From UHGV virus genome UHGV-0198113: a stretch of 39,138 bases of DNA. The stretch is one strand, 5' to 3'. A model generated the notes under the pieces. That model had not been told where the DNA came from, did not search any database, and saw only the letters and a program-made list of their open reading frames with translations. Shown here in pieces: positions 4,473 through 34,902 of the stretch (the stretch's first letter is position 1; each line of letters begins with the position of its first letter). The position numbers were made by a program, and so were the translations under genes. Source of the stretch: a virus.

Positions 4473-4504
4473 CGTAAAGACTCCTACTTTTAAATAAAAT
4501 GGAT

Positions 4505-4530
4505 ACCCCTCCCTTTTTACAGGGAGGGGT
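4505..4530 (-). terminator. stem-loop (10-bp stem ACCCCTCCCT/AGGGAGGGGT) between two minus-strand giant genes; terminator or attenuator
   Basis: Perfect inverted repeat with 6-nt loop; T-rich tract follows on the minus strand (complement of 4480-4504). Confidence 0.4.
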
Positions 4531-4567
4531 TACCTACGGACACATTACTGCCCGCAGGCAGTCTGTC

Positions 4568-7500: not shown

Positions 7501-8758
7501 TTCCTTTACCGGTTTTCAGTTTAGCGACGCCTTTTTCAGTCAGAGTCGCTTTTTGAGGGTCGATAACCCCTACGATAGGGTCAGCGCGTGAACCTTTACC
7601 CGTAAAGCTAATTCCGTTGCGACCCTCGATATACACTTTAGTGTCATCAGGGTCATTACCACCTGTCCCTTCGTCAGGGTCTTGTTGGTATTCCATTAGT
7701 GCAGTCGTTGTAAGCAACGGGTTGCCGTTTAAGGTGAGTTTATTCATCCCTAAGGCATCGCCTGTTGATTCAATACGCAACGTGTTCTTACCTGCACGCC
7801 ACTGTATGTAACGACCCGCACCTGTTCCTTCCAAGTGCCCGACCGCCAACACAACTGAACCGTTTGACTTCAACGTAAAACCATCGTTCGCAAAAATGAT
7901 TTCAGATTCACCATTTTTAGAACTGAATTGTGCACGGTTTCCTGACACCGTACAGTTGAAATTCCCATAGACCTCATCAGAAATCCAATGAGAAATATAG
8001 GTGTCAACTACCGATTGTGGTAAACGGAATGCTTTTAGTTCTTCCGTTAACGCTTTCAGACGTAAACCGTAAGCCATAAAGGTATCCGGCGTTTTGAGAT
8101 TCACCGGATGAGCTTCGATTTGTGCTACGGTTGTTTCATGAGGATTCTTTGCCGCGATATGTGCTGGGTAATTAAATGCTTGAATTTCTTTACCCAGAGC
8201 AACAACGAGTGCTTTAACCTCGGCCAGTTTATCTTTAATCAGTTGGTTTGCATCATCGGTTTTTAATTCGATATCATGAACCGCAGACGCAAGATATTTT
8301 TTATTCAGCAAATCTGCCCAAGACGTTGCAGCAGGTGTTGCTGGATAAAGCGACGGACGACCTTCTAATAACAACCAATCCGCACTAGTCGGGTTATTGA
8401 GATGTTTTACAAGCTCATCCAGAATTTCTACAAACGGATCGTAAAACGTTCCACCGAGCATTTGTCCTTCAAAAGTAACTAAACCTTTGATGGATGGGTT
8501 GATAAGGTGTACCCCACAATACACGTTGGCTGCTACCGAGTCATCCAGTTCCGTCAGCTGATATTGCAGTTCGTAATCTACCCCACGGCTCAGTGGGGTA
8601 GTTGAACCCGGCTGCTTAACGACCAGATTTTCAAAGAACGGGCGATGATCCAAAATCACCACCCGATCGTTGTTGTTTTCTGACCCGATGATACGCTCCT
8701 CTAAGAAGTGATTCTCGGCTTTCGTCCCCCGAGGATCGTAAGGATACGCTTTCATCAA
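4568..8758 (-). CDS. giant structural protein (1396 aa), tail-fibre/tailspike-like
   Basis: Track ORF; AAGGAGA RBS 8 nt upstream inside the end of the preceding gene; N-terminal 'HRPFFENLVVKQPG...GVDYELQY' motif shared with neighbours; Gly/Thr/Asn-rich composition typical of fibres. Confidence 0.8.
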   Translation of the reverse strand: MMKAYPYDPRGTKAENHFLEERIIGSENNNDRVVILDHRPFFENLVVKQPGSTTPLSRGVDYELQYQLTELDDSVAANVYCGVHLINPSIKGLVTFEGQMLGGTFYDPFVEILDELVKHLNNPTSADWLLLEGRPSLYPATPAATSWADLLNKKYLASAVHDIELKTDDANQLIKDKLAEVKALVVALGKEIQAFNYPAHIAAKNPHETTVAQIEAHPVNLKTPDTFMAYGLRLKALTEELKAFRLPQSVVDTYISHWISDEVYGNFNCTVSGNRAQFSSKNGESEIIFANDGFTLKSNGSVVLAVGHLEGTGAGRYIQWRAGKNTLRIESTGDALGMNKLTLNGNPLLTTTALMEYQQDPDEGTGGNDPDDTKVYIEGRNGISFTGKGSRADPIVGVIDPQKATLTEKGVAKLKTGKGTETTGVAATPGSLTPYSTDLSGYVPKTTLLNGKAMNDGSRQITKAELGLEHADNTADVDKPLSSALSTAVEGLAEKNHHHEWSELGIYKASQSIYGIGRYATNQNGLVEGRAVVPNILKELSARLEVVAAAIANAKEGTVTDFAAVQGAQWRFNSQGTALTVQDLKVFYLFDGNKDEATLTGAIDLQTTPMFNWFSPNNQLETTWPEAKVSKGTGITWDGIDEPPLMGYHSVPVGKTATQMGDQSVITVLAKARVKAYQSKLWVYAAGGGPVTVYINGVQVASGESPLLTVYETSPNVENYVVAIKAECSDTAKSAAVQFEIYDGDYPVYFSGPETHVELLADFVTTHVGIRHYLYVNMLTGSLYSRAEPIESNQVDPERGFIGYVDVYAGENYANKTVTFDTTFDFGTSAEIGNHVTTRNAHGLKVVDWSLTDNPRLPLLNRAIPEPRALVYRKMLTAGSGGTAVSLSRGLLTYSHGLNVKTALQLIFSTEGATPYCWFTPFNPKENSAPTFEGSFVFDVDDVGGTKALTAAPDLILCASSQGSSVGRRYVRFNLTDKTCKVGVGTVRTNETWYKTFETNDGVMLMETANETAVSATTKDVLFNGDETNPAILDLLGWGVSKDKISPVHAPRGMIRYRYNVQTRVLRLALSFSQFNTTAVKQRQVEFQLPFDLVDYFAGDGVGLAFSELSEKCRLTISHGLIDPVTSNIDIDKYHYLRGLFESYVDSSIGQLSDARDADYAQTAIDPASYEIKSEFRFTEAIGLPLGQGVASLSHEGQLPAQFYDRKLARGALVSQNSTWNNAWSTTSPASDKHRGNLILRFAQGVSKAHYRIARVSGTIKSNWPGKVIIGDAQKDAFLSATDIVEFALSTSSDVGKAISLTPVDLRAGQDLYIVLELPGDNPEGYELNFSCNLEIFDETNTRQDQLNVQSFEVRSGDEQVMITKRNPYHITSKAWKWILAVLKRELNGKQLGDRT

Positions 8759-8768
8759 AAAATTCTCC

Positions 8769-11700
8769 TTAATCGCGAATAATCACCGCGTTGAGTTTAT
8801 TGTTTTCACCCAAGAACGACATGACACGCTCCTTGTTCAGATAAGGAGGGATCGGTAACGCGTTATAATCGGCTAAATTATCATCAAACTCTTTTGCTAC
8901 CAGCGCGTTTAGCGTCTCAGGATCTGAGCTTGGGCCAGCTGTCTCAATGAGGCGTGCGCGGTTTAATGCAGAATAGTTAGCGATATAATCCAATAGCGTT
9001 CCGTACGATTTATTTGCTGTTATGCTATCAGCAGTGGTACGGAGGTTGGCGCGTACCTCGTCGTCATAAAGTCCCCCTAAACCGTAATAGATAGGGGTAT
9101 AAGGATCGTTAACAATGGGTGAAATATCTAACTCACCTAGACGATCAGTTAACGAAATTTTCTGAGTTGTTCCGCCCGCTGCGGTGCAGCTTACGTATTT
9201 ATCTACATCTGACAAATACACAACGATGGTATAAACCGTTCCTGCTAGTGTTAACGTCGCATTAAACGTCACATCGTTGTTCGCGCCGCGTCTGTGGGTA
9301 AATGTGATATCGGGTTGTAATGTACTCCAAGGGGCAGGTGTAACACGCTTCGTTGGTGTAAAACCAAGAACAACCGATTTCCCATTAGCGAAGTTTAACC
9401 CGAAACCTGCGTAACAATATTCGCCCTTACTGTCAGTTAAGCGGTAGCCCCTTGTCACTAAAAGAGACAAGCGAACAAACTCATTGGCATTATTCCGCCA
9501 ACAACCTAAAATCGTTTCAAGCACTGTGCCCGTTTTTGCGTTACTCTCCGTTTCCCAAGTTACACGAACACCTGCGTTCGAGAACAGCGGGAAAAGATTG
9601 TGAATAAATCCATGAACATTATCACTAACTCCCTTTGGATCAAATATCCACTTCGAAGCTAAGGAATCGTATTTTACGCCGTCGAGTGCTTTATACGTAT
9701 TCCCCATCGCAAATCGCCAATCAGCCTCACCACGTGTTACTGCTTGTAAGCCTGAAGCCCAGCAGGGCGCACCCACTGTTAAATTGCGCAAACCTAGAGC
9801 TGCACGTGGCGCACTTCTCTGAATATGCGCATTGTCGTTAGCAATATGTTCTGACAATTCCCGGAAATCACCTAAACGGGTCACGTTACGCAACTCGGTT
9901 AAGTACACTTCTGAGATATCGTTGACGCCAATCATCCCCACACGGGTCATGGTATCCGTTTCGGCTTGACTGTAACTATCGTGAATAACATAAGTCGCCC
10001 GGTTATCGACAATATCAACAAACACCCCAGCAACAATTTCCGTATTCAGTTTTGGAAAGCGCTCAGCAGTGTTTACTGTCATTAACGGCACTTGATACGT
10101 TTCCCCACCAATGAAATACGTTGTGGCGGGTAACGTAACCAGTATCTTGTCTTTTACCGTAACTTCGATTAAGTCGTTCCCAGTTTCACCGTAACGGATG
10201 ATGTCAATTCGGGCACCCGAATCTACGTTACCTACTGTTGCTTCCAGCTTCTCAATTCGAGCTGTCTGATCCATCACCACACTAGCGTCTAAAGCCAGCG
10301 TTGCATCATCGACGGCTAATCCGAATTTAATTAACCCGCGTTTATCCGTTGTTGCGTTTTCCACTCCAAACGCTGTTGACGGGTGGCGGTGAACCTTCGG
10401 TGAATATTTATCCAACTCTGTTTGTTGTGCAACAGAAATAGGTAAATCGACGTCAGGTGTGTTTGCAACGTTACCTAGGTTAAAGGTGATTTTGTCGATG
10501 GTAATAGAGCTGGTTAACGGCATGTCGTTAATGTACGATTTTACCGCGACCAATTTACCCGTAAACTCAGCATCGAGTTTTGTAATCAACGCAGGCGTCG
10601 CTGCCAGATTTTCCGCAGTACCGAACTCATCGGTTAACTGCCATCCGGCTAAGGACGTCGTATCCGTTGCGGTAGGGAGGACAAACGTTGCCACAAACGG
10701 TGACGCTTTTATTCCGTTACCTGTAATGGTTACCGTTGCTGTCGAGTTTGCGTAGAATAATCCTGTTCCACCCGCGGTATTACCTGGTAGGTAAGGCCCT
10801 ACTGTGGTGGGGTCTAAAAGTTTCTTACCACGCCACTGCAAGCCACGATCGTCAGCGTACAATACCAGCTGATTAGTCCCTGCCTGGAAAGTTACGGGGT
10901 TATTCCCTGCATTAACTTCGGTTGAACCTTGGCCAATAAACTTAATGGATTTCGGGTCAACGGCAAACTGAGCACCTAAACGGGTCTCGTCAACAACATC
11001 CGGCGCTTTCTTAATGGTAACCGTGTTACCTTTGTTTTGCGAGATAATGCTGACACTATCAGCAACGTTGTTAATCAACGTTTTAAAGTGATGTTGGTTC
11101 TCTAACGCTTCTAGCGCAGCATCCATGTTAACGAAGTTGACACGAGCGCTGTACGTCTTACCATTCACGGTAACAACGATATCAAATACGTTCCCCGTAC
11201 GTTTTAATTGGAAACGTAACGTAAAATCATCGTCAGGTATTGCAGGATCGGCGATTTGAGAAACATATTGGACTTCCGGCTGCGGATTAGCATAACCGTT
11301 CAGTTGTAAACCGATACTGACTCGACCTGACAGAACTTCACCGGTAAGTTGAATGAATTTGCCAGAGTTACTACCAGGATTTTCATAGAAGCGTAAACCA
11401 ACCATACCGACTGCTTCATTACCTGACGCTGTTTTACGTCCGGTGACAATGAAGTCAATATCTTGCAGGTTGGCAGGTACTCCATTAAAATAAGTACCAA
11501 ATCCATTCTTCGTTCCCGTATAACGAAGTGCGCCATGATACGTGTAACCATTGCTAACATAGCTTTCGCTAAAATAAGGGTTCACGTACTTAGACATCGA
11601 CACCGGATCAACTTCCGTCGTAAAGGACGTAAAGCCTGGCAGTGTTCTGATAGTTCCGTCAACCGTTTTGTTAGCTGCGGTGCGTAGCAGTTTATTCTGC

Positions 11701-13091
11701 GCTGTCAGTGTTGCCTGCGTCGGGTATTTACTGTTAACGTAATCCGTTAACTGTTGTTTCGTTTTCCCGTAAGCCAAAGCAGCATCTGACGCGATACCGT
11801 TTAACTCTAACGCACGAATCGGTCCCCACGTATCGACGTGTGGGTTATCTTTACGGGTAACGTGCTCGTGAGCTGGTGCGTTGCGGTAAAGCTGTTCCAC
11901 CAACTGATGGTATTTGACAATCAGCTGATAAACGTCATTGCTTACGTCGGCGTCTGGCGCACCAGGTAACGCAAGGAATTGTGCATAATCGTTTTCAGCC
12001 GCCCACCAGTTTAGATTAACGTTGGTTTTATATTTCAACCATTTCGCAACATCTGTTTTGCTATAACCTGCTGAGAATTCGGATGGTGGGTTATCAACGT
12101 TGAACGTGTAGTCCATCGTCTGTTTGTTAGTCGTCACCTCGATAACATACACACCGTTACCAGGCTGACGAACAACACTAAACGTTAACTCACCTTTCAA
12201 TTCGCTGTCGGTCAGTCCGTTGATTAGCGTATAGTCGTAATCGGTTGAGCCGCTTCCTAACGCTACGGTCAGGCGCAAAGAGATTTTACGCTGCTTTAAT
12301 TGAAGACGAAGGATACTTGCACCGCCATTCGCGTAGCACAACATCCAATCGATTTGTTCATTTGGGTTAATGCTTCCCATGTTCGGGAAAATACCAGGAA
12401 TACGGTATTTCATCGACAGGGAGTAGTCATTTAACGTCGTGGTTTTGTACGTAACGGCAAAACGGCGTTTTGTAGTGTTGTACGTATAACCGCCTTTGTT
12501 ATCGTACGTTGCATACTGTTCTGACGTGATAACCGTGCCGTTAGCACGATGCTCAATATCTAACGTGTTACGTGCAATCGGGTCTAACCGATTTACAACG
12601 TTACCTAAGGAGTCGCCTAAGCCTGCGATGGCTTGCATTAACTCCAGTTCACCTTTCCAGTTTTCCCAATCGAACTGAATGTCAACGGGTGGAAAGTAAA
12701 CGTCCCCGATAACGGTGTCCCATTGACACGTAGACGGGTATTTATCTTTATTTAACTCACGCTCTGCGCTAATCTGCTGCTGTGTGGCTTCACCACAACC
12801 AACGGCATGATAATCCACAGTAAAATTCGACTTGTATTTGTCGTTAACAATCCAAATCATCCCGTGAATGAGATAGGCTGTGCGCAACATACCTGTCTCG
12901 TACGGGTGTGTAATTACGTAATCGTCGCCTAAGGTCAGTGTTTTGCCGCCGCTCTTGACCACCAGGGACGTGGTGAAAAAAGGGGCGTGGGCAGGTACCA
13001 ACATTCGGTACTTCGTACCAATGACGGCGACCGCTTCACCGGTTATTTTATTCCCCGGTTCTTTGAAGTGTGGGTCTAGGACGACAGCCAT
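8769..13091 (-). CDS. giant structural protein (1440 aa), tail-fibre/tailspike-like
   Basis: Track ORF; AGGAG RBS; N-terminal 'HAPFFTTSLVVKSGG...GDDYVITH' motif; stops 10 nt before the next gene starts (operon). Confidence 0.8.
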   Translation of the reverse strand: MAVVLDPHFKEPGNKITGEAVAVIGTKYRMLVPAHAPFFTTSLVVKSGGKTLTLGDDYVITHPYETGMLRTAYLIHGMIWIVNDKYKSNFTVDYHAVGCGEATQQQISAERELNKDKYPSTCQWDTVIGDVYFPPVDIQFDWENWKGELELMQAIAGLGDSLGNVVNRLDPIARNTLDIEHRANGTVITSEQYATYDNKGGYTYNTTKRRFAVTYKTTTLNDYSLSMKYRIPGIFPNMGSINPNEQIDWMLCYANGGASILRLQLKQRKISLRLTVALGSGSTDYDYTLINGLTDSELKGELTFSVVRQPGNGVYVIEVTTNKQTMDYTFNVDNPPSEFSAGYSKTDVAKWLKYKTNVNLNWWAAENDYAQFLALPGAPDADVSNDVYQLIVKYHQLVEQLYRNAPAHEHVTRKDNPHVDTWGPIRALELNGIASDAALAYGKTKQQLTDYVNSKYPTQATLTAQNKLLRTAANKTVDGTIRTLPGFTSFTTEVDPVSMSKYVNPYFSESYVSNGYTYHGALRYTGTKNGFGTYFNGVPANLQDIDFIVTGRKTASGNEAVGMVGLRFYENPGSNSGKFIQLTGEVLSGRVSIGLQLNGYANPQPEVQYVSQIADPAIPDDDFTLRFQLKRTGNVFDIVVTVNGKTYSARVNFVNMDAALEALENQHHFKTLINNVADSVSIISQNKGNTVTIKKAPDVVDETRLGAQFAVDPKSIKFIGQGSTEVNAGNNPVTFQAGTNQLVLYADDRGLQWRGKKLLDPTTVGPYLPGNTAGGTGLFYANSTATVTITGNGIKASPFVATFVLPTATDTTSLAGWQLTDEFGTAENLAATPALITKLDAEFTGKLVAVKSYINDMPLTSSITIDKITFNLGNVANTPDVDLPISVAQQTELDKYSPKVHRHPSTAFGVENATTDKRGLIKFGLAVDDATLALDASVVMDQTARIEKLEATVGNVDSGARIDIIRYGETGNDLIEVTVKDKILVTLPATTYFIGGETYQVPLMTVNTAERFPKLNTEIVAGVFVDIVDNRATYVIHDSYSQAETDTMTRVGMIGVNDISEVYLTELRNVTRLGDFRELSEHIANDNAHIQRSAPRAALGLRNLTVGAPCWASGLQAVTRGEADWRFAMGNTYKALDGVKYDSLASKWIFDPKGVSDNVHGFIHNLFPLFSNAGVRVTWETESNAKTGTVLETILGCWRNNANEFVRLSLLVTRGYRLTDSKGEYCYAGFGLNFANGKSVVLGFTPTKRVTPAPWSTLQPDITFTHRRGANNDVTFNATLTLAGTVYTIVVYLSDVDKYVSCTAAGGTTQKISLTDRLGELDISPIVNDPYTPIYYGLGGLYDDEVRANLRTTADSITANKSYGTLLDYIANYSALNRARLIETAGPSSDPETLNALVAKEFDDNLADYNALPIPPYLNKERVMSFLGENNKLNAVIIRD

Positions 13092-13158
13092 TATCTACTC
13101 CTATAATCCGTGGGCGTCGAGTTCATACTATGACTTGAATCTATAGAGGAAAAGAGCT

Positions 13159-14421
13159 GTGACTACTGCTTATCAAGTGCGGCCCGACAGCGCTTTTGGC
13201 TTCTCTCGAGAGTCCCGTACCTGGGGAGCCATCGATGTCACGCAACCTTTAGCTACACTGTGTTCGGATTACCACACCTTTGAGGTCGGCCTGAGTGCGC
13301 TTGGTAAAGACTATACGTTAGTCAGCCAGTATCACCTTGCTGAATTACAAAACCGAACCGATACTTTACAAGACTGGTTGAATGAAAAAGCCGGTGTGGT
13401 TATTCCTACCTTAAAAGCAGGATTACCGAAACTGGAATTCAGCTGGGCGCATTACCAATCGATTAACGCAGACGTACCCGTTGAGTCTTACCTGTGCCCT
13501 GCGGGTTATCATTACAGTCAGGATTTCAGTCTGGATGATGCGACAGATGTGGTGATAGTCTGTGAAGACAAATGGAAAGACAAATACCGTAACGGGGTGC
13601 TATACAACATCAACGGGCAATGGGTGCCGCATCAATCTGATTCTGTTGGTGTACGATTACCTGGTGCTGGGAATATCGTTAGACGTGCAGGTACACCAGA
13701 TATCGGTTGCATGGTTTTTGATGCGCTCGGTGCGGTGAAAACATACCCGATTGCTAATCTTACCTTAAACAAACTCGACACCACGCGCGATTACTATTCA
13801 ACGTTAATGATTTCGTTGCCCGAATCCATAACCGGTAAAACCGTAGGGTTCGTTATTGGTGGGATGTTACGTTGGCTGCCTGCGAACGGTTATTTCTCCG
13901 ATCGTGCGATTATGATTTCTTTACCGAATTTCGATCTTGCGCGCACGGTGTTAGAAACACGGCGTTACTACGATTGGGATGCTATCGGTGTAGGGGATTT
14001 ATCTTCACCTGCTAACGTTCAACGAATTCGCAACCCAGAAACATTAAAAGCGCTCTTACTTCACGAATCTTCGTTTATTTTTACGGTGGATAATCCGTAT
14101 TTAGAAGAAGAGATTGTGGGCGTATCGCATAACGCGATTTGGGGACGTTGTTATCTCAAAGACCCTAACGATCCTGATTCTGAAAAACCGTTAGGCTATT
14201 TAAATAACCGATTCGGAAAGACGGTAGGTTATTGGCCTACGTGGGAAGAAGGTGAGTGGGTATTTAACACCACCGAGTTCGACAGTCAAAACTACGTATT
14301 TCGTGAAGCTCGCTGGTATAACCAGAAGAAGATTAACGATGCGCAAGCGATAGTCGGGCCCTTCGGCCCCTGGGAAAAAGTGTATTTAGAAATGCATCGT
14401 TTTCGTGCACGAAAAAAATAA
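13159..14421 (+). CDS. hypothetical protein (420 aa), GTG start
   Basis: Track ORF; GAGGA RBS upstream of GTG; followed by a strong terminator. No motif recognised. Confidence 0.6.
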   Translation: MTTAYQVRPDSAFGFSRESRTWGAIDVTQPLATLCSDYHTFEVGLSALGKDYTLVSQYHLAELQNRTDTLQDWLNEKAGVVIPTLKAGLPKLEFSWAHYQSINADVPVESYLCPAGYHYSQDFSLDDATDVVIVCEDKWKDKYRNGVLYNINGQWVPHQSDSVGVRLPGAGNIVRRAGTPDIGCMVFDALGAVKTYPIANLTLNKLDTTRDYYSTLMISLPESITGKTVGFVIGGMLRWLPANGYFSDRAIMISLPNFDLARTVLETRRYYDWDAIGVGDLSSPANVQRIRNPETLKALLLHESSFIFTVDNPYLEEEIVGVSHNAIWGRCYLKDPNDPDSEKPLGYLNNRFGKTVGYWPTWEEGEWVFNTTEFDSQNYVFREARWYNQKKINDAQAIVGPFGPWEKVYLEMHRFRARKK

Positions 14422-14427
14422 AGTAAC

Positions 14428-14470
14428 CTCCTACCCTCTTAGAGGGTAGGAGTAGCACGTTTTTTTTTTC
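14428..14470. terminator. bidirectional rho-independent terminator
   Basis: 11-bp perfect stem CTCCTACCCTC/GAGGGTAGGAG with TTA loop (14428-14452), T11 run on plus (14460-14470) and T-rich tract on minus; sits between convergent genes. Confidence 0.75.
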
Positions 14471-14472
14471 GC

Positions 14473-14682
14473 TTAGTCTTTTTTGTAGACGATCGCGTTG
14501 CCGTGCAGTTTGTTGTTACCAGAGATACCGATAACTTTAAATGCGTCACCACCGATTTTCTCGGCTTCAGCAGCCAGTTTACCGGTTACGTGGTCAACGG
14601 TATCACCAAAGGCACTAACGTTACCAATTTTCTTAAACTCTTCTGGGATATGCTCAGCAGAAGAGAACTCTTTAATAGACAT
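14473..14682 (-). CDS. DUF1471 (BhsA/YdgH/McbA-like) small protein, no signal peptide
   Basis: Track ORF; GGAGAG RBS; 'KIGNVSA...AEKIGGDAFKVIGISGNNKLHGNAIVYKK' matches the BhsA-family core as I recall it; in-frame stop 11 codons upstream rules out an N-terminal extension. Confidence 0.65.
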   Translation of the reverse strand: MSIKEFSSAEHIPEEFKKIGNVSAFGDTVDHVTGKLAAEAEKIGGDAFKVIGISGNNKLHGNAIVYKKD

Positions 14683-14753: not shown

Positions 14754-14773
14754 CTCCTCCCCGAAGGGAGGAG
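14754..14773 (-). terminator. C(UUCG)G tetraloop hairpin terminator for the 321-aa minus-strand gene
   Basis: 8-bp stem CTCCTCCC/GGGAGGAG; loop reads UUCG on the minus strand; T-rich tract follows in the minus direction. Confidence 0.55.
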
Positions 14774-14891: not shown

Positions 14892-15857
14892 TTACCGTGG
14901 ACCCGAAGTAGGACCGTGTACACCGTCGTGGATGTGTACGCTGAAAGTAATGCCCGCAATAACCGCATCTTTAACCGTAAAGATACCCACACCTTCCCCA
15001 GTACCGCCGTACTTGAAGTTTTTAGCCACTTCAAGATTACCGGTGAATTGTGCTTCATTCCCTTCTTGTTTAAAGTTCGGCGTTTTAAAGGTGGTCGAAC
15101 TCCCCGCTTCCGTTAACCAGGTTTGTGTTTTAAAGGTAACGGATTTCGATGCTTCTGTATTGCGAACTTCGCATTTCTCATTAATCGTTTTTGTTTCCAG
15201 GTTAATAGAACGCTTTGAATAAATGAACGCATCTTCTTTGTTGATGTTCACTTTTGATAGCATCGCATTCTCAAACCCGAGATCATCTTCGACCGAGTTA
15301 ATGTAATACTTGTTCCCTTTATGGTCAACGCATTGCCACGATCCGTTTGCGTTGTCAAACTGGAATAACCACGCCGCTTTCTCGCCATTCACCATACATG
15401 TTCTTAGCGTGATATGTTTGTCAATCGTCGAGACATTCAACACATACGCATTGGACAGGTCATCCGCCATTTGGTTTTCGGGGTCAGCCGACCACGCATA
15501 AACCGCATCTTCTAATCGCTTAACGTTAGCGAAATTCAAATCAATCCAAAAATAAATATCGGTTTTCCCCAAACGTAACAAGATAACGTAGTCTTCTCGT
15601 TTAACGTCAGGGGAATTAATTCGGTTGGAGTTAAACTTCCACCACTTTGCTGTTATCGTGTTACCCGTCTTAATGGTTAGGTTATCTGTTGCACCAGACG
15701 TTTCATGCGTCTTTTCAGTTGCTGAAGAAACAGATTGCACCACAGTAGGGTTAGCAAAGTTGGTTTCAATTGGTATCACTTTTACCCGATCTGTACCACG
15801 GGGTTTGTCTTCCGCGACGATACCAATTGAGAAAAAATCAACACTGGATTTCTCCAT
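14892..15857 (-). CDS. hypothetical protein (321 aa)
   Basis: Track ORF; AAGGAA RBS 7 nt upstream on minus strand. No motif recognised. Confidence 0.7.
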   Translation of the reverse strand: MEKSSVDFFSIGIVAEDKPRGTDRVKVIPIETNFANPTVVQSVSSATEKTHETSGATDNLTIKTGNTITAKWWKFNSNRINSPDVKREDYVILLRLGKTDIYFWIDLNFANVKRLEDAVYAWSADPENQMADDLSNAYVLNVSTIDKHITLRTCMVNGEKAAWLFQFDNANGSWQCVDHKGNKYYINSVEDDLGFENAMLSKVNINKEDAFIYSKRSINLETKTINEKCEVRNTEASKSVTFKTQTWLTEAGSSTTFKTPNFKQEGNEAQFTGNLEVAKNFKYGGTGEGVGIFTVKDAVIAGITFSVHIHDGVHGPTSGPR

Positions 15858-15883: not shown

Positions 15884-15908
15884 TTTCAGATATATTTTAC
15901 TTAGGTGA
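15884..15908 (+). promoter_or_regulatory. conserved 25-nt motif TTTCAGATATATTTTACTTAGGTGA (copy 1), candidate phage promoter or regulatory site
   Basis: Near-identical second copy at 20208-20232 (one mismatch); both intergenic and upstream of plus-strand gene blocks. Confidence 0.4.
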
Positions 15909-16243
15909 ATAGGGACTGAAGTGCGAGTTCAGTCCCTACGGACACGTTTCTTTCGAAACGGAGTTACCACGTTATTAGGAAACAGACCAATGTCTACTGA
16001 GAAGAAAGGCGGATTGGACGAAGTCATCGAACAGTTCAAACGCTACAACCCAGCTATTCCTCGGTAATCATAGTATTACTTAAAATTTACAGATTGTCCC
16101 TTTATTCTGCTACTCGGGATACCGGTAGGGGGTAGGGGGCATTATGTATACGGATATAAATAGCGGAGGTATACGTAGTATACCGACATACTCTTCCCAG
16201 AGGAACGTAGTGACTTCCTTATTCCTTTTTAGGAGAATAATCC

Positions 16244-19570: not shown

Positions 19571-20152
19571 GTGTACCGATTAATAGAAATGCGAAAAGAC
19601 GTATGGTTGGAAAACCTCGTCAATGGGGAGCTAGAAGGAATTGAGCTTTCCTTACCCGAAAAGGCGGACACGGTACTGGCCTTTCTGGTAAAACAGAAAA
19701 GTAGTCTGGACCCGATAGGTATCTTTGCTGTAGAACACACCGATCCTCGTGGCCCTACGCTACGTTGTATCTGCTGCGCTATGGATAAGATTCCTGCATC
19801 GCCGTTTGTGCAATACGCACGACGTAAAGCACCAGCGGGTGGACTTTTGTGGGTATCGTTACTGCCTGACGTAAGGATCATTCGGGACGACTACTCGGCG
19901 TTTGTACAAGCCAGTAAAATCAACCTGTATAATCCGAGTGCTGAACGTACGGATATGCCCTTCAGTATTACGTTAGACGACGACGGAACGCAGGAGGGTA
20001 TCGAGTCCATTACGGAATTGGTTAACTCCTATCCAGTTGCCACTATCGAGTTAGAAAACCCGAAGCGTTTACCGCTCGGAGACTTACTCGAGTGGATAGA
20101 ACTGAACACCGAGTTTCTGGTAGGTTCTCGTTTGTATCGGTTCGATGTTTGA
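19571..20152 (+). CDS. hypothetical protein (193 aa), GTG start; possible diverged paralog
   Basis: Track ORF; GAGGTGG RBS 7 nt before GTG; C-terminus 'LEWIELNTEFLVGSRLYRFDV' loosely resembles the module. Confidence 0.6.
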   Translation: MYRLIEMRKDVWLENLVNGELEGIELSLPEKADTVLAFLVKQKSSLDPIGIFAVEHTDPRGPTLRCICCAMDKIPASPFVQYARRKAPAGGLLWVSLLPDVRIIRDDYSAFVQASKINLYNPSAERTDMPFSITLDDDGTQEGIESITELVNSYPVATIELENPKRLPLGDLLEWIELNTEFLVGSRLYRFDV

Positions 20153-20157
20153 ACGCA

Positions 20158-20188
20158 GTGGGAGCATTGCTCCCACTTTCTTTTTTGT
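20158..20188 (+). terminator. rho-independent terminator closing the paralog operon
   Basis: 8-bp stem GTGGGAGC/GCTCCCAC with 3-nt loop, followed by TTTCTTTTTT. Confidence 0.7.
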
Positions 20189-20207: not shown

Positions 20208-20232
20208 TTTCAGATATATATTACTTAGGTGA
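20208..20232 (+). promoter_or_regulatory. conserved 25-nt motif TTTCAGATATATATTACTTAGGTGA (copy 2)
   Basis: Identical to copy 1 except for one A/T; lies between a terminator and the secreted-protein cassette, about 48 nt upstream of the ATG at 20281. Confidence 0.4.
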
Positions 20233-21244: not shown

Positions 21245-21251
21245 TTACAGG

Positions 21252-21267
21252 AAAAAAAGGGGGGGGG
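21252..21267. repeat. homopolymer tract A7G9 in an intergenic region
   Basis: Direct reading: A run 21252-21258, G run 21259-21267, overlapping a weak hairpin (GGGGAC/GTCCCC) and about 25 nt upstream of the RBS of the next gene. Confidence 0.8.
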
Positions 21268-21304
21268 ACTTCGTGGTCCCCGTTCTATTTAAGGAGTGCG
21301 TGAA

Positions 21305-23094: not shown

Positions 23095-23571
23095 ATGCAA
23101 CTGTCTAACGTCTACCAAGCAGCACAATTTCATCATGACCTGTCCGCCAAACCTGAACAGATTCGCCACAACCTGACAGTGGCTTGGAAACTATTACGTA
23201 TTGCAGAAGCTGCTCGTATAGGCGACCAGTCAACAATCATCGACACAGTACGTACATTACATCCTGTCGACCTGGAAACAATTTGGACGTTCGATTTAAC
23301 CCGAATTTATCACCGCCGATTTAATGCAGCCGTTGACGCAATTCGTCCTTATTTCCATTACTTACGGACAACGCGAGAAAGCGATACTGCACTCGAATGG
23401 GTATTGGTACAAAGTGTATGGAGCGACTACATTTATCTCCTTTCTTTAGAGACGGGTGAATGTATCGTTGCTAACGAAGTCTTTTCAAGTAACGCGGAAA
23501 TGTACCGCTCCTACGCAACGATTAAAGGTGAATCCCAGCCTATTTTATCACTCACGCACTTAGGGCTCTAA
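23095..23571 (+). CDS. hypothetical protein (158 aa)
   Basis: Track ORF; AAGGAGA RBS; single-gene unit flanked by terminators. Confidence 0.7.
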   Translation: MQLSNVYQAAQFHHDLSAKPEQIRHNLTVAWKLLRIAEAARIGDQSTIIDTVRTLHPVDLETIWTFDLTRIYHRRFNAAVDAIRPYFHYLRTTRESDTALEWVLVQSVWSDYIYLLSLETGECIVANEVFSSNAEMYRSYATIKGESQPILSLTHLGL

Positions 23572-23580
23572 TTAGCCCGG

Positions 23581-23608
23581 CCCCGACCACGTTCGGGGTT
23601 TCTTTTTT
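23581..23608 (+). terminator. rho-independent terminator
   Basis: CCCCGA/TCGGGG stem followed by TTTCTTTTTT. Confidence 0.55.
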
Positions 23609-23628: not shown

Positions 23629-24237
23629 ATGAACGAAATCACACTAGTTCGTTTTCTTGAAGCCATGTTGAACGCAGAGCAGCATCCACACACCCCGTTA
23701 TTCATCGATCTGATGGAAGAAGAAGTTGAAGGGTTCTTAGCTTACCCGCGTTTACGGGAATACTTTAAGCGTAAAACACCGGTGGCGTATGACAAACTGG
23801 TTTACGCGCTCGAGAACAGTACGACTTTACTGACAACGCCGTTCAAAGCAATGGAAGCTCTCGACCCAGCGGGTACTGTCAGTATTCCGCAACGTGTTGT
23901 GTTCTATTACGTGGACAACGGTCGTATTAAAGCAGACGTTGTTAACTGGATCTCTGAAGGCGAAGTTCCTGAAACCCGTACCTTTAACTTGTGTCCGGTA
24001 GAAGAAGGTTGGATGGTCGGTAGCCATTATTCTTATCCGTACCAAAGCATTAAATCCCCGTATCTCTATCCGGTTTATCTGGATGGCGTAACGCCAGGGA
24101 AATGTGCGGCAGTAACCAATCTGATTTGCACACTAACAATGGAGATGATGGCTTCTGAAGCAGGTCGGGTTTGGGTAGAAAACTCAAAGAACATTGATGA
24201 CTGGATTTCAATGGGATATCAACCGTATACCAAATAA
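23629..24237 (+). CDS. hypothetical protein (202 aa)
   Basis: Track ORF; AAAGGAAA RBS; no metallophosphatase (Mre11-type) motifs seen. Confidence 0.7.
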   Translation: MNEITLVRFLEAMLNAEQHPHTPLFIDLMEEEVEGFLAYPRLREYFKRKTPVAYDKLVYALENSTTLLTTPFKAMEALDPAGTVSIPQRVVFYYVDNGRIKADVVNWISEGEVPETRTFNLCPVEEGWMVGSHYSYPYQSIKSPYLYPVYLDGVTPGKCAAVTNLICTLTMEMMASEAGRVWVENSKNIDDWISMGYQPYTK

Positions 24238-24241
24238 CACT

Positions 24242-24290
24242 TGGGAGAACCTTCGGGTTCTCCCATTCGTTTTTATTTTTTTTTCTTTTT
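24242..24290 (+). terminator. rho-independent terminator with C(UUCG)G tetraloop
   Basis: Stem GGGAGAACC/GGTTCTCCC with TTCG loop, followed by a long T-rich tract (TTTTTATTTTTTTTTTCTTTTT). Confidence 0.8.
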
Positions 24291-27116: not shown

Positions 27117-27163
27117 TCCAGAACGTACCCTCTGTAAGGAGGGTACTAACAGGAACAGAAAAG

Positions 27164-27292
27164 ATGACCTCGATAAATACTACGAATGCGGCGATCTCTG
27201 CATTATACGATGCGGAGCTTACATGGGGCGGGATGCTAATTACCGCCGCCATATTAGCCGCCGCAGCATTCGTCATTGCGCGTTGGTTTTAA
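27164..27292 (+). CDS. small membrane peptide (42 aa)
   Basis: Not in track. 'MTSINTTNAAISALYDAELTWGGMLITAAILAAAAFVIARWF' has a C-terminal TM helix; weak RBS; followed by a T-rich tract. Confidence 0.35.
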   Translation: MTSINTTNAAISALYDAELTWGGMLITAAILAAAAFVIARWF

Positions 27293-29091: not shown

Positions 29092-29790
29092 ATGTTTCGT
29101 ATCTTCTTTCTTTTACTGGTAACACTTTTCGCGTTTAACGCACAGGCGTCAACGTCAACGCCACAATCTAAGCATCATCGTGAGTTTGCACAAATCCAAC
29201 ATCGATTCGAAAAGGTCAGTCCTTTAATTGTGGAAATCTCCCGAAAGCAAGGCGTTGATCCTAAATTGATGGTTACGCTGATTTACCGTGAATCGCGTTT
29301 TGATCCTAAAGCTTACAATAAAAGCTCAAGAGCACACAGCCTGGTACAGATGGTTCCGAGTACCAAACGTAATTTGCTAAAGCTTTACGGAAAAGAATTA
29401 GGTCTTAGTCAGAACGCCGATTTGTACAATCCGCGTAATGCTGTTTTGCTGGCTGCCGCGTATATTAAGCATCTTGAAAAGGGGTTAACTAAACGACTCA
29501 AACGCAAGCCCACCATGGCTGAAGTTGCGTTAGCTTACCACTGGGGTGAAAGTGGTGCACACGCACGAATCAAAAGCAAATCTCGAGCAGCACAACGAGA
29601 AATGGCAGGGTTTATGAAAGACGCAGCATTTTACAGTGCGAAAATCGATGTACCTGCTGCTGTGGGCTCGGCTCCACGTCAGCTTGCGTTTGCGAAGAAG
29701 TCACCACGTCAGATTCAATTGGCGGAAGTCAGTAGAATTTGGGATACGATAAACACGAGTTTTCCAATCAATAGAGGAGTTGCCCTTTGA
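29092..29790 (+). CDS. exported lytic transglycosylase (SLT domain) with Sec signal peptide
   Basis: Track ORF 29065-29790; start moved to the ATG with GGAG RBS at -7 (29065 is an alternative). Signal 'MFRIFFLLLVTLFAFNAQA'; SLT signature 'RESRFDPKAYNKSSRAHSLVQMVPST' (catalytic E-S, Q-M/LMQ-type motif). Confidence 0.75.
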   Translation: MFRIFFLLLVTLFAFNAQASTSTPQSKHHREFAQIQHRFEKVSPLIVEISRKQGVDPKLMVTLIYRESRFDPKAYNKSSRAHSLVQMVPSTKRNLLKLYGKELGLSQNADLYNPRNAVLLAAAYIKHLEKGLTKRLKRKPTMAEVALAYHWGESGAHARIKSKSRAAQREMAGFMKDAAFYSAKIDVPAAVGSAPRQLAFAKKSPRQIQLAEVSRIWDTINTSFPINRGVAL

Positions 29791-30296
29791 GCATCGTTGT
29801 AACCGATTGGTATAAAGGCATTACAAAAGCCGCACAACTAACCGCGAAAGACGTTTACGCTATCGTCCGAAGCAGTATCGAAGACGAGATTAAATCGGAT
29901 GAAGATTTCGCTGAGAAGCACGAATTTTACGATGCTTTGCCTACTGCCTTCGGCGATGATCCCGAGAATGAGCAAGAGTTTGATTGGAACGTAAACTTAG
30001 CACTGCTCTGGATTTGTGGTCTACGGCCAACGGTAAAAGAAACCGAAGAAGGTAAAGTGTTGCTCTGGAACTATACGGGTCAGTATAACCGTGGGTTGGT
30101 CTTTAAGCAAGCGTATATGGATGCTACTGTAGAACTTCAGAATCTGTTACTTGGCGAAAACACCTACTGCCAACGTAGCTTCTTAACGATTCTGGAAAAA
30201 CTCGTAGCAACACACAAAGTCTGGCGTAAAACTGACGCCCCTGAACACATGTTCATTCTGGAATACGCGGTTATTCCAAACCAACCGTTCTTCTAA
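29787..30296 (+). CDS. hypothetical protein (169 aa), TTG start
   Basis: Track ORF; AGAGGAG RBS 9 nt upstream of TTG; overlaps the previous stop by 4 nt; start codon uncertain. Confidence 0.55.
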   Translation: MSIVVTDWYKGITKAAQLTAKDVYAIVRSSIEDEIKSDEDFAEKHEFYDALPTAFGDDPENEQEFDWNVNLALLWICGLRPTVKETEEGKVLLWNYTGQYNRGLVFKQAYMDATVELQNLLLGENTYCQRSFLTILEKLVATHKVWRKTDAPEHMFILEYAVIPNQPFF

Positions 30297-30300
30297 TCCC

Positions 30301-30340
30301 TACCCCTACTCTTAACGGAGTAGGGGTACTTTTATTTTCA
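30301..30340 (+). terminator. rho-independent terminator
   Basis: 11-bp perfect stem TACCCCTACTC/GAGTAGGGGTA, 6-nt loop, followed by CTTTTATTTTCATTT. Confidence 0.8.
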
Positions 30341-30893: not shown

Positions 30894-31829
30894 ATGACTT
30901 TTCCATCTGAAGTAATCTACGAACTGGCTAACACTCTGCGTCGTCACTATAATGGACATATGCTGCAATCCTGCATAGGTGAAACTGCTGACTTCCTGCG
31001 TGGCCATCTCCTGGGTAACAACCCGTCTTCGATTACACAGGAGACGGTTTTCCATATTGATCGTGCCACCAAAATTCTTCCAATTAGCGACGCCGTCGCA
31101 GTTCAAGAGGGCTATACATTCAACTTCTCTATGGGGATGCGTCATTCCTCTATTGCTATTAATCCCGTCTCGGGAAATGAACCGTCCTTCATGCTCAATC
31201 CGTTTCCTGCGAAGCACGGTAACTGGTTCGTTGTGGTAGAACAAGGCGTGAATCAGTACGAGGTTGTTGCGGCTCGCGACGAGTCGTTCTTTGACTTAGG
31301 GCAGATTTCTCGCCGCCAAGAAATTGCTCTTGACCTTCGTCAGGGCAATATCGGATTAAGTGGAAGCGTGGTCTATTTCATTCTGAGCAGTTGGGCACAT
31401 GTAAGTTATATCCTGAGTAAAGCTGATGTAACGTTCCACCCAATAGAGGTAGATTACCGCGCCGCGAAGAATGACGATCATGACGAAGAAGAACCGGTAC
31501 CTGGTGCAGAAGTTGCGGTTTGTGAAGACTACGACGATCTAAAATCCGTGTTTGTTAAACGTGACATCTTCGAATCTCTTAACCTGGATTTCCCTGGTGA
31601 CGAGAAAGAAATATCTGTCGCAGACCTGGTAGAAGCCCTGTGCCAGAAAGACCAGTCTAATGAAATCAGTGATGAAGAAGCTGAACTCTTCCAGGTTCAA
31701 CAACTTATCAGTAAAGTTATAGGTGGTCAAGAAATCGCCGACACCCTTATGGCTCTACCGCCGAAGAAACGTACGCAGAAATATATCCGCGAACTGGTTC
31801 TTAAAGCGCTAGGTCAAAAAGCAAAATAA
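30894..31829 (+). CDS. hypothetical protein (311 aa), acidic C-terminal half
   Basis: Track ORF; AGAGGA RBS. No motif recognised. Confidence 0.7.
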   Translation: MTFPSEVIYELANTLRRHYNGHMLQSCIGETADFLRGHLLGNNPSSITQETVFHIDRATKILPISDAVAVQEGYTFNFSMGMRHSSIAINPVSGNEPSFMLNPFPAKHGNWFVVVEQGVNQYEVVAARDESFFDLGQISRRQEIALDLRQGNIGLSGSVVYFILSSWAHVSYILSKADVTFHPIEVDYRAAKNDDHDEEEPVPGAEVAVCEDYDDLKSVFVKRDIFESLNLDFPGDEKEISVADLVEALCQKDQSNEISDEEAELFQVQQLISKVIGGQEIADTLMALPPKKRTQKYIRELVLKALGQKAK

Positions 31830-31832
31830 AAG

Positions 31833-31870
31833 TTACCCTACTCCTTCGGGAGTAGGGTAATTCTTTTTTT
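31833..31870. terminator. bidirectional rho-independent terminator with C(UUCG)G tetraloop
   Basis: 12-bp stem TTACCCTACTCC/GGAGTAGGGTAA, TTCG loop, T8 on plus and T-rich on minus; between convergent genes. Confidence 0.85.
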
Positions 31871-32492
31871 AGTTAACTAACCCGTTAGCTTTAAGAATCT
31901 CTAACATTTGGTTGTTTAACTCTTTTAATTTTTTGTTTTCTTCCGTTAATGCAGTCACCTGTTCACCTAATGGAATCGATTCACGAATTTTATTCTTTCG
32001 TGCCGCTTCCATCTGTAGGTGTTGTTCTTCCGTCACTTTCCCTTCATACTCGAGCGTCGTGACCTCAACTTTCGGATCAATCCCCAGTGTGTGGGTAAGT
32101 ATATCCGAAACGTCTTTGGTCATCGCCGACACATTCACGTAGTCTGGTACAAGCGCCAGATCAATCACCATCACGTTCCGCTGATACGTAATCCCAGACA
32201 GACCAGGATATGACTCCAGGTAAGTGTCGGGTATATACGCAACCTGTCCGTCGCGAGACTTAAACGTCAGAATGGATGCACTGACATTCGCATCTGCTAA
32301 ATATTCTTCACGACTCAGGCCGACTGGCTGGTAATACTCGTTATAAACGTCAATATTCTGACGTACTAAATCTGGGAAGGTACGTGACGCTTCTACTGTA
32401 TAAATGACCGTTTCGGATAAAGTAAAAGGTGTCTTTACTTTAAAAAGCCCTGTAGTGTTAACAGGGACCTGTAGTGGTAAGCGCGTGGCCAT
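31869..32492 (-). CDS. hypothetical protein (207 aa), C-terminal coiled-coil-like segment
   Basis: Track ORF; immediately downstream (3-nt gap) of the 457-aa gene on the minus strand. Confidence 0.7.
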   Translation of the reverse strand: MATRLPLQVPVNTTGLFKVKTPFTLSETVIYTVEASRTFPDLVRQNIDVYNEYYQPVGLSREEYLADANVSASILTFKSRDGQVAYIPDTYLESYPGLSGITYQRNVMVIDLALVPDYVNVSAMTKDVSDILTHTLGIDPKVEVTTLEYEGKVTEEQHLQMEAARKNKIRESIPLGEQVTALTEENKKLKELNNQMLEILKANGLVN

Positions 32493-34398: not shown

Positions 34399-34401
34399 TT
34401 G

Positions 34402-34857
34402 ATGAAAACGCTGTTATTCATCATGGTTGTATTCATGGGTTTGGTGAGTAATAGCTACGGCGAAGAGGTCAGACGGGCAGCTTATCGTCCATTGGAACCT
34501 CCTCCGACACCACCCATCATGGTGAATTGGAAAATTGACAAAGATGCAATGCGTGAGTATGTTGCAGACGTCAACACCTATGCTTATTACGTTTATGTCT
34601 ACACACGAAATTTAAATCAGCAAGCCGCTAAACGTGGCTGGAGCCCTCCGATGTTGGCTCCACTCTGCGAACGTTATGAGTTACCGAAATTACATGTTGT
34701 GCCTGAACGTTTATCACTCGATGAAAGTTCCTTAACGCCGCAAGAAATTAGTCGGGACTTATCACGAAAACTTAACAGTTTGTTGTGGAATTACCGTTCT
34801 GACCGTCAGACCTTACTCGATTCGTACAATCAATACTTGACGACGTGTTTGTACTGA
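34402..34857 (+). CDS. exported Pro-rich protein (~151 aa)
   Basis: Track ORF 34399-34857 trimmed to ATG 6 nt after AAGGAG; signal-like 'MKTLLFIMVVFMGLVSNSYG'; 'PLEPPPTPP'; no lipobox Cys. Confidence 0.65.
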   Translation: MKTLLFIMVVFMGLVSNSYGEEVRRAAYRPLEPPPTPPIMVNWKIDKDAMREYVADVNTYAYYVYVYTRNLNQQAAKRGWSPPMLAPLCERYELPKLHVVPERLSLDESSLTPQEISRDLSRKLNSLLWNYRSDRQTLLDSYNQYLTTCLY

Positions 34858-34861
34858 CACT

Positions 34862-34902
34862 CCCTCCTGTATCCTTCGGGATACAGGAGGGTCTTTCTTT
34901 TT
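34862..34902 (+). terminator. rho-independent terminator with C(UUCG)G tetraloop
   Basis: 13-bp stem CCCTCCTGTATCC/GGATACAGGAGGG, TTCG loop, followed by TCTTTCTTTTT. Confidence 0.85.

Follow-up and report, generated by a model that had tools for sequence, protein, structure and literature searches.

The hairpin at positions 31833-31860 of the DNA studied here, a stretch of 39,138 nucleotides from the virus genome UHGV-0198113 (hereafter the window), separates two convergent genes, 30894-31829 (+) and 31869-32492 (-), and raises the question of what such an element does for the phage that carries it and why hairpins with related stems are found at other gene ends. A first-pass annotation had placed it in one family of terminator hairpins, closed by C(UUCG)G tetraloops, built on a recurring stem and propagated as a cassette, and had set it against the background of T4-type phages. 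All of the sequences quoted in that annotation were found where it had placed them.

We propose that the hairpins of the window are very likely uni- and bidirectional intrinsic terminators of a phiEaH2/SPN3US-like phage, three of which belong to a clade-specific family with a conserved stem. Termination at these hairpins is something we infer, for which the mapping of termination sites in the phages phiKZ and 201phi2-1 serves as an analogy.

Origin of the window

By megablast the window matched phiEaH2 and Stratton only, with 76% identity across 1.4 kb. Its gene order is colinear with gp090-gp130 of phiEaH2, and its PHROG matches comprise giant virion structural proteins, a baseplate protein, an SbcC-like protein, a transglycosylase and an RNase. 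Judged by these matches, the window comes from a jumbo phage that is kin to Erwinia phage phiEaH2 (Erskinevirus) and Salmonella phage SPN3US, in the phiKZ-related group, and is not from a T4-type phage. The T4-type setting suggested for the UUCG hairpins is thus not the appropriate one; they are better compared with the terminator motif known from phiKZ and 201phi2-1. Split genes for RNA polymerase beta/beta' are present several times over in phiEaH2 and SPN3US, and among the products of the phage are SbcC/SbcD-like palindrome nuclease subunits. For comparison we used four metagenomic relatives, L126, L127, L128 and L129, with measured nucleotide identities to the window of ~85% for L126 and ~79% for L127; L129 is near L126 and L128 is near L127.

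Terminator-like hairpins in the window

Against a null of 100 first-order Markov simulations, with loops of 3-9 nt, the window holds 12 perfect hairpins with stems of at least 9 bp where 1.17 +/- 1.14 are expected (maximum 5), and a terminator-like scan gave 32 against 18.8 and 35 against 20.1 expected. The strong hairpins have perfect stems of 8-13 bp and folding energies of -15 to -25 kcal/mol, and they lie 3-20 nt (most of them 3-8 nt) past the stop codons of ORFs with PHROG support. A T-run follows the stem directly at 20157, 23579, 24242, 30301, 31833 (on both strands) and 34862, and the T tail is weaker or displaced at 4505, 14428 (plus strand), 14754 and 21264, with the T-run beginning 5 nt past the stem at 4505 and 7 nt past it at 14428 on the plus strand. 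From their build and position, these hairpins are of the terminator type, at gene 3' ends and far above chance in number. Rfam families at the gathering threshold gave 0 matches across the whole window.

In four hairpins the loop, read on the transcribed strand, is a canonical C(UUCG)G, at 14773-14754 (minus), 24242-24265, 31833-31860 and 34862-34891, and all four stand on perfect stems. A fifth hairpin, at 21264-21281 (+), had also been counted as closed by CTTCGG, although its sequence, GGGGAC-TTCG-TGGTCCCC, folds as GGGGACU-UCGU-GGUCCCC, so that a U.G pair closes the loop and there is no canonical cUUCGg; it is a weak hairpin (-11.9 kcal/mol) with a G-run before it and a poor T tail, and is possibly a weak terminator or an attenuator ahead of the next gene's ribosome-binding site. 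The CTTCGG hexamer is itself barely enriched in the window (25 against 16.7 +/- 4.4 expected). On the transcribed strand, C(UUCG)G is found in four of the five perfect tetraloop hairpins with a stem of at least 8 bp, for which our own arithmetic, taking 2/256 per loop, gives a binomial P of ~2e-8. Among 25 tetraloop hairpins of phiEaH2 there are 11 TTCG loops and 1 CGAA loop.

The minus-strand candidate terminator at 14754-14773, CTCCTCCC-TTCG-GGGAGGAG followed by the interrupted tail TTATCTTATG (-15.2 kcal/mol), sits between the baseplate gene 14892-15857 (-) and the gene 14473-14682 (-), folds from 14773 to 14754 as CTCCTCC-C-TTCG-G-GGAGGAG, and its stem is kept in L126-L129. On the plus strand, the putative unidirectional terminator at 24242-24265, TGGGAGAACC-TTCG-GGTTCTCCCA with a long T-rich tail (-17.8 kcal/mol), starts 4 nt past the stop of 23629-24237 and has an orthologue in phiEaH2 at 92249, TGGAGACC-TTCG-GGTCTCCA. 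Window 24242 and phiEaH2 92249 exemplify a second, looser recurring class, found at unidirectional sites, in which a purine-rich 5' arm gives RGGAGACC-TTCG-GGTCTCCY and a U-tail; further examples are at 21271, 60733 and 86801 of phiEaH2. The putative unidirectional terminator at 34862-34891 (+), CCCTCCTGTATCC-TTCG-GGATACAGGAGGG and then TCTTTCTTTTT, has a perfect 13-bp stem (-25.2 kcal/mol) and starts 4 nt past the stop of 34399-34857; in the relatives its stem differs close to the loop.

Three other hairpins have neither this loop nor the shared stem. At 20157-20177 (+) a putative unidirectional terminator outside the stem family, AGTGGGAGC-ATT-GCTCCCACT followed by TTCTTTTTTG, starts 4 nt past the stop of 19571-20152, and its orthologues have other stems that are still paired (GGTGGGGG/CCCCCACC and GGTGGGGT/ACCCCACC), which is covariation. 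At 23579-23600 (+) another, GGCCCCGA-CCACGT-TCGGGGTT followed by TCTTTTTTG, starts 7 nt past the stop of 23095-23571. The minus-strand hairpin at 4505-4530, ACCCCTCCCT-GTAAAA-AGGGAGGGGT with the tail ATCCATTTTATTT (-20.9 kcal/mol), is flanked by two giant virion-protein genes; it has a C-rich 5' arm, lies outside the CYACTCC family and has an orthologue in phiEaH2 at 73125, ACCCCACCC-CGGA-GGGTGGGGT. Similarly built hairpins are also seen in 5' UTRs at 15910 and 27125, where a role in termination is impossible.

A stem shared by three hairpins

The core member of the stem family is the hairpin with which we began. Within the element 31825-31870 it reads AAATAAAAG-TTACCCTACTCC-TTCG-GGAGTAGGGTAA-TTCTTTTTTT, with a perfect 12-bp stem, T-runs on both strands and folding energies of -22.3 kcal/mol on the plus strand and -19.9 kcal/mol on the minus strand, which suggests a bidirectional terminator; its orthologues are found in L126-L129 and at 101485 of phiEaH2. 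A second member, apparently unidirectional (+), is at 30301-30338, where TACCCCTACTC(T)-TAAC-(G)GAGTAGGGGTA is followed by CTTTTATTTT (-19.6 kcal/mol) and the hairpin starts 4 nt past the stop of 29787-30296. The third is a peripheral member in the element 14418-14464, with its hairpin at 14428-14452, CTCCTACCCTC-TTA-GAGGGTAGGAG, and A/T tracts either side; its folding energy of -19.1 kcal/mol is the same on each strand, it separates the convergent genes 13159-14421 (+) and 14473-14682 (-), and it too would act in both directions.

Taken by itself, the window does not establish that these stems are related: among its 7 G+C-rich, T-tailed perfect hairpins there is one pair sharing at least 8 nt, a result equalled in 31 of 300 composition-preserving shuffles and thus not significant. 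Because of this, the stem family rests on data from outside the window. For a separate test of membership, a covariance model, R1, was built from 15 phiEaH2 copies only. In the window R1 matched 31825-31870 with 62.2 bits (E 1.4e-12) on the plus strand and 47.3 bits on the minus strand, 30301-30338 with 28.2 bits (E 3e-4) and 14418-14464 with 22.4 bits (E 0.009). Elsewhere in the window nothing was significant (4505, E 0.93; 34862, E 1.6; 21264, E 7.2), and 14754 and 24242 were absent among matches up to E 10. The three hairpins recovered by this phiEaH2-only model are exactly the three whose stems had been described as related. The UUCG loop and the shared stem had also been described as marks of one family; each set of hairpins is real, but the sets are distinct and overlap only at 31833.

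The stem family in phiEaH2 and across genomes

In the complete 243-kb genome of phiEaH2, the family stem (C)TACCYACTCC-loop-GGAGTRGGTA(G) is found at ~15 sites, with loops of 3 to 9 nt. Comparing hairpins across a whole genome had been proposed as the check that could undo the family, and on phiEaH2 the stem similarity became stronger and not weaker: 39 G+C-rich, T-tailed perfect hairpins yield 26 pairs sharing at least 8 nt, against 1.0 expected, and none of 300 composition-preserving shuffles reaches 26. Hairpins of the form CYACTCC...GGAGTRG number 10 against ~0.01 expected by our own arithmetic, with 0 in the inverse arm order, and the CYACTC core is present in 12 of the 39 strong phiEaH2 terminators, about a third. 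This excess, together with the recovery by R1, bears out the earlier suggestion that the GAGTAGGG-type stem forms a phage-specific recurring family. Outside hairpins, CYACTCC is found 15 times in phiEaH2 against ~13 expected, which is neither avoidance nor enrichment. Unpaired GGAGTRG close to start codons looks like a ribosome-binding site, for example at 13095-13101 (minus) before the ATG at 13091.

Beyond phiEaH2, R1 matches the orthologous sites in the four metagenomic relatives and gives 4 matches, with a drifted consensus, in the first 50 kb of SPN3US. When IMG/VR was scanned for CCCTACTC-N2-8-GGAGTAGGG, many contigs of 220-250 kb came back with several copies apiece. The stem is, by these comparisons, conserved in sequence as well as in structure and confined to the phiEaH2/SPN3US clade. 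A host-derived repeat was considered and rejected: 596 Gb of bacterial and archaeal genomes contain the 10+10 nt core 7 times, never in Enterobacterales, and those 7 matches are in unrelated taxa and at chance level.

The position of the copies is also informative. In phiEaH2 the CYACTC stem is carried by 9 of 15 hairpins at convergent junctions and by 3 of 24 elsewhere (Fisher P = 0.0035), and the 5' arms are pyrimidine-rich at convergent junctions (purine fraction 0.28, against 0.51 elsewhere; P = 0.0025). A hairpin with the build of a terminator is present at 15 of the 17 convergent junctions of that genome. Both convergent junctions of the window, at 14428 and 31833, hold family members between an A-tract and a T-tract, and the hairpins 14428-14452 and 31833-31860 use only Watson-Crick pairing, so that both strands fold, as is looked for in a bidirectional terminator. 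Since a perfect palindrome is alike on both strands, one element can terminate both transcripts. The family is thus mainly a feature of probable bidirectional terminators at convergent genes, a point that the first-pass annotation had not made. We also considered whether the type of tail (TTCTTTTTTT or CTTTTATTTT) is strictly linked to gene strand, and rejected this as inconsistent, for example between 4077 and 101485 of phiEaH2.

Conservation of pairing and the gene X site

Across the relatives, the family stems are unaltered at 14428, at 31833 and at an extra copy that flanks a gene termed here gene X. At 14428 the stem is identical in the four relatives and the loop flips between TTA and TAA. 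Compensatory double changes are seen at the orthologous sites of 30301, 20157, 24242 and 34862; at 30301 the stem becomes CCCCTAATCC/GGATTAGGGG in L127 and L128 and CCCCTACC/GGTAGGGG in phiEaH2. Such change is also seen between genera, where CTCCTACCCTC/GAGGGTAGGAG of the window at 14428 corresponds to CTCCTACTCCC-GTTTCG-GGGAGTAGGAG at the orthologous site of phiEaH2. Across the 15 phiEaH2 copies the five core pairs never vary and covariation is seen in the outer ones, with 95% of cells paired and changes on both sides in 30 cells against 10.4 in shuffles. The compensatory changes and the invariant core together imply that pairing is selected and that the core sequence is held too.

The surroundings of 31833 differ between the window and its relatives. 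All four relatives have a hairpin A, CCCTACTCC-TCCG-GGAGTAGGG, then gene X (~181 aa, plus strand) and then a hairpin B, TACCCTACTCC-loop-GGAGTAGGGTA, and the 9-bp stems of A and B are identical. The window has the single hairpin 31833 at this site, without gene X, and the sequences on its two sides align with those left of A and right of B. With 26% identity (E 1e-7) to the N-terminal part of the upstream gene 30894-31829, gene X is a weak paralogue of that part. This arrangement fits either a duplication of a gene with its terminator or a deletion through recombination in or near the twin hairpins. In relation to the propagated cassette that had been proposed, the twin hairpins that flank gene X in the relatives are the one direct piece of evidence in its favour and suggest that hairpins may have spread in this way. 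Around the family copies we saw no flanks conserved beyond the A/T tracts, no target-site duplications and no nearby transposase.

Discussion

In the mechanism that we propose, each terminator would consist of a perfect G+C-rich stem past the stop codon, a loop of high stability, which is often cUUCGg, and a U-rich tract. As the nascent RNA folds, the hairpin would push into the RNA exit channel, and the polymerase could then let go of a weak rU:dA hybrid, these steps being those of the standard mechanism of intrinsic termination. At the convergent junctions 14428 and 31833, one palindrome between an A-tract and a T-tract would act for both strands. These signals are most likely read by a multisubunit RNA polymerase of the phage itself, as homology suggests. 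In this clade the family would take the place that the conserved terminator motif has in phiKZ and 201phi2-1. It is probably kept up by two processes together, namely copying along with genes, through gene duplications and the gain and loss of cassettes, and selection on the stem or its homogenisation. Constraint on structure would not be sufficient, because structure alone gives no reason to expect the same stem at sites that are not orthologous.

The intrinsic terminators of phiKZ share the pattern BCCYCCCC-loop-GGGRRGG-TTAT, in full 5'-BCCYCCCCHWWDGGGRRGGBYTTATKYYGT-3' (Putzeys et al., 2024; PMC10914365). Motif A of 201phi2-1 is of the same kind, and eight terminators of that phage have been validated in vivo (PMC11512511); the motifs of both phages lie where termination has been mapped, and they act as terminators in reporter assays (PMC10914365; PMC11512511). 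The source of the window is similar to them in being a phiKZ-related jumbo phage with its own multisubunit RNA polymerases, in having many terminators per genome with a stem that is common in sequence, beyond structure, in the pyrimidine/C-rich 5' arm and purine/G-rich 3' arm, in T-rich tails that often include TTAT (CTTTTATTTT here) and in bidirectional terminators at convergent genes. Unlike phiKZ, the consensus here is TACCYACTCC/GGAGTRGGTA and not CCYCCCC/GGGRRGG, the loops are often cUUCGg where those of phiKZ are A/T-rich (HWWD), and the family has its copies mainly at convergent junctions, each in the form of one perfectly palindromic hairpin. Searching the window for the published phiKZ pattern with up to 3 mismatches gave 0 matches, and the parallel is therefore one of kind and not of sequence. 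By eye, the minus-strand hairpin at 14754 looks phiKZ-like, with the C-rich 5' arm CCTCCC, a GGGAGG arm and a tail containing TTAT; the published pattern does not fit it at up to 3 mismatches.

In their G+C-rich stem-loop, U-tract and position just past a stop codon, the hairpins are also like bacterial Rho-independent terminators, and the order of A-tract, hairpin and T-tract serving both strands at convergent genes is that of bacterial bidirectional terminators. However, bacterial terminators do not normally share stems within one genome, whereas about a third of the strong phiEaH2 terminators share CYACTC. C(UUCG)G hairpins have long been known from T4 intercistronic regions and from E. coli terminators, and those of the window have the same extra-stable tetraloop, C-G closing pair and intergenic position, and are strongly over-represented. 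T4 is nevertheless an unrelated phage, and the tetraloop is a general stability device that does not define the stem family: of the three members in the window, only 31833 carries it. REP/BIME or MITE-like palindromes are likewise short, intergenic and repeated within a genome, and can form hairpins at RNA 3' ends. Unlike those elements, only the ~26-nt hairpin and its A/T tracts are conserved here, target-site duplications, clustered arrays and a RAYT-type transposase are missing, and the copies stand at fixed, orthologous gene ends with a sequence that is essentially absent from bacterial genomes. A mobile palindrome of the REP/MITE type was rejected on the A/T-tract flanks, the chance-level bacterial matches and the lack of an adjoining transposase.

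Other roles for the hairpins have to be weighed against termination. They could stabilise RNA 3' ends or mark processing boundaries, if transcription read through them and 3'-to-5' exonucleases then trimmed the RNA back to a cUUCGg hairpin, as has been proposed for REP elements and for some T4 intercistronic hairpins. The extreme stability of the stems and tetraloops would suit such a role, as would the poor or displaced U-tract at 14754, 4505 and 14428 (plus strand) and the similar hairpins in the 5' UTRs at 15910 and 27125. Most of the hairpins nevertheless have a canonical T-run right after the stem, on both strands exactly where genes converge, and the motifs of homologous type in phiKZ and 201phi2-1 are mapped, reporter-proven terminators, and so we regard this explanation as improbable. 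Protection of 3' ends and termination are mutually compatible. Alternatively, the palindromes might act as DNA, as cruciforms, as inverted-repeat sites for a protein or as recombination hot-spots, with their likeness to terminators being secondary. Here one would point to palindromes that are perfect and conserved in sequence, to exact loop inversions between genomes that are 95% identical, which imply that the arms recombine or template-switch as DNA, to the gene X indel bounded by twin hairpins and to the encoded SbcC/SbcD-like palindrome nuclease subunits. Yet loops that vary from 3 to 9 nt are unfit for a dimeric site of fixed spacing, compensatory changes preserve pairing, oriented T-tracts right after stop codons suit a function in RNA, and the core 7-mer is at background outside hairpins (15 against ~13), all of which makes a role at the DNA level very improbable.

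It might also be held that there is no family, and that the stems resemble each other as a by-product of composition in C/T-rich 5' arms. The 31 of 300 shuffles that equal the window's pair sharing at least 8 nt are what this would predict, but it is refuted by the excess of pairs in phiEaH2 (26 against 1.0, reached in 0 of 300 shuffles), by the excess of paired cores (10 core hairpins against ~0.01) and by the recovery of the three window hairpins with R1; the multi-copy jumbo contigs and the near absence of the core in bacteria are further evidence against it, and we find it barely credible. A more speculative reading, which we think rather unlikely, sees in the conserved palindromic stem not just any strong hairpin but a specific recognition element, read by the phage RNA polymerase or by a co-evolving termination or RNA-binding protein, or else a dispersed recombination hot-spot. 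Recognition, if true, would account for homogeneity within the clade together with drift between genera. Because the copies are mutually direct and inverted repeats, a hot-spot could drive loop flip-flop, the gain and loss of cassettes and the inversion of blocks, and inversions of gene blocks would then create the very convergent junctions that host family copies.

We found no description of the terminators of SPN3US-like or Erskinevirus phages in the literature, and the clade-specific terminator family is previously undescribed but unsurprising. Confirmation of termination at these hairpins would provide an annotation rule for the ends of transcription units in phiEaH2/SPN3US-like jumbo phages, for which we found no transcript maps, and R1 finds family members in all three lineages searched, those of the window, of Erskinevirus phiEaH2 and of Seoulvirus SPN3US. 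It would also mean that sequence-conserved terminators, among giant phages that have RNA polymerases of their own, are not peculiar to the nucleus-forming phiKZ-like ones, and it frames a testable question, namely whether the stem sequence, besides its structure, is read by phage polymerases or by a phage factor. As compact, palindromic and bidirectional terminators, the hairpins could serve as parts in synthetic biology.

A search of the literature on loop inversions in phage terminators returned nothing specific. Between close relatives, with genomes 95% identical, the hairpin loops are often exactly inverted, and this flip-flop lets inverted-repeat recombination or template switching be read cleanly from natural phage genomes.

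Loop inversions at orthologous hairpins

Comparison of orthologous hairpins between the window and its four metagenomic relatives (L126-L129) showed that the loop can be exactly inverted while the stem is unchanged. At the site of the bidirectional terminator 14428 (loop at window 14439-14441) the loop is TTA in the window and in L127, and TAA in L126, L128 and L129. Most of the other cases are between L127 and L128, as exemplified by the orthologous positions 18159-18164 of L127 and 18161-18166 of L128. Specifically, the loop at the site of the bidirectional terminator 31833 (window 31845-31848) is CGAAAA in L127 and TTTTCG in L128, that of hairpin A, one of the twin hairpins bracketing gene X in the relatives, is TCCG and CGGA, respectively, and that of the family terminator 30301 is AATC and GATT. 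Outside the family, the loop of the 15910 hairpin (window 15921-15927) is GTGCGAG in the window and CTCGCAC in L127, with a near-exact flip between L127 and L128. L127 and L128 are 95.5% identical, and 4 of the approximately nine hairpins they have in common carry an exact loop flip; these flips imply that recombination or template switching between hairpin arms is frequent. Plastid genomes are known to undergo comparable inversions of this small size, and in the literature we found no report of loop inversions in phage terminators.

Tails and twin copies of the terminator hairpins

Bidirectional members of the terminator family, in the phiEaH2 genome (L121-L125) and in the window, tend to carry two distinct types of tail: one, TTCTTTTTTT, belongs to the strand whose loop reads TTCG, and the other, C(C/T)TTTATTTT, to its complement. 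The latter contains TTAT, an element reported 3' of the terminator hairpins of the giant phage phiKZ.

At window 31829-31870 there is a single hairpin and no gene X, whereas the corresponding locus of L129 (17533-18169), and likewise that of L126, L127 and L128, has this extra gene of 181 amino acids, flanked by two hairpins of identical CCCTACTCC stem. Gene X is weakly paralogous to residues ~3-187 of window ORF 30894-31829 (26% identity, E 1e-7).

A candidate promoter and hairpins without a T tail

An AT-rich motif, CAGATATAT(A/T)TTAC within TTTCAGATATATATTACTTA, is found on the plus strand at window 15887-15900, closely 5' of the 15910 hairpin, and at 20211-20224, closely 3' of the unidirectional terminator 20157. 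Both copies are kept in all four relatives and the motif, which is similar to the AT-rich early-promoter element of phiKZ, is a likely phage promoter. The window contains just these two copies, and their recurrence is not statistically beyond chance (11 of 100 shuffles).

Immediately after the first copy, in a divergent region, lies an 11-bp plus-strand hairpin (15910-15938; TAGGGACTGAA-GTGCGAG-TTCAGTCCCTA) that lacks a T tail and is retained in the relatives, where its arms have changed in a compensatory manner (GGGGTTGAA/TTCAACCCC and GGAGCTGAA/TTCAGCTCC). This hairpin probably forms a stem-loop in a 5' UTR and does not act as a terminator. Another plus-strand hairpin without a T tail, GTACCCTC-TGTAAG-GAGGGTAC at 27125-27146, shows covariation in the relatives, and its 3' arm includes GGAGGG, an SD-like sequence; the hairpin lies ~17 nt 5' of a small plus-strand ORF (27164-27292; 42 amino acids, hydrophobic C-terminus), which is below the usual ORF size cut-off.

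Other features of the window

The weak hairpin 21264 is led into by an A7 then G9 run (AAAAAAAGGGGGGGGG; 21250-21267, plus strand), a slippage-prone type of sequence.

Three giant minus-strand ORFs in tandem (window 3-13091) are colinear with phiEaH2 gp090-gp092. ORF 3-4529 is truncated by the window end at >1,500 amino acids, while ORFs 4568-8758 (1,396 amino acids) and 8769-13091 (1,440 amino acids) match the same PHROG virion-structural families (8078, 7557, 7449 and 2163) and are therefore paralogues.
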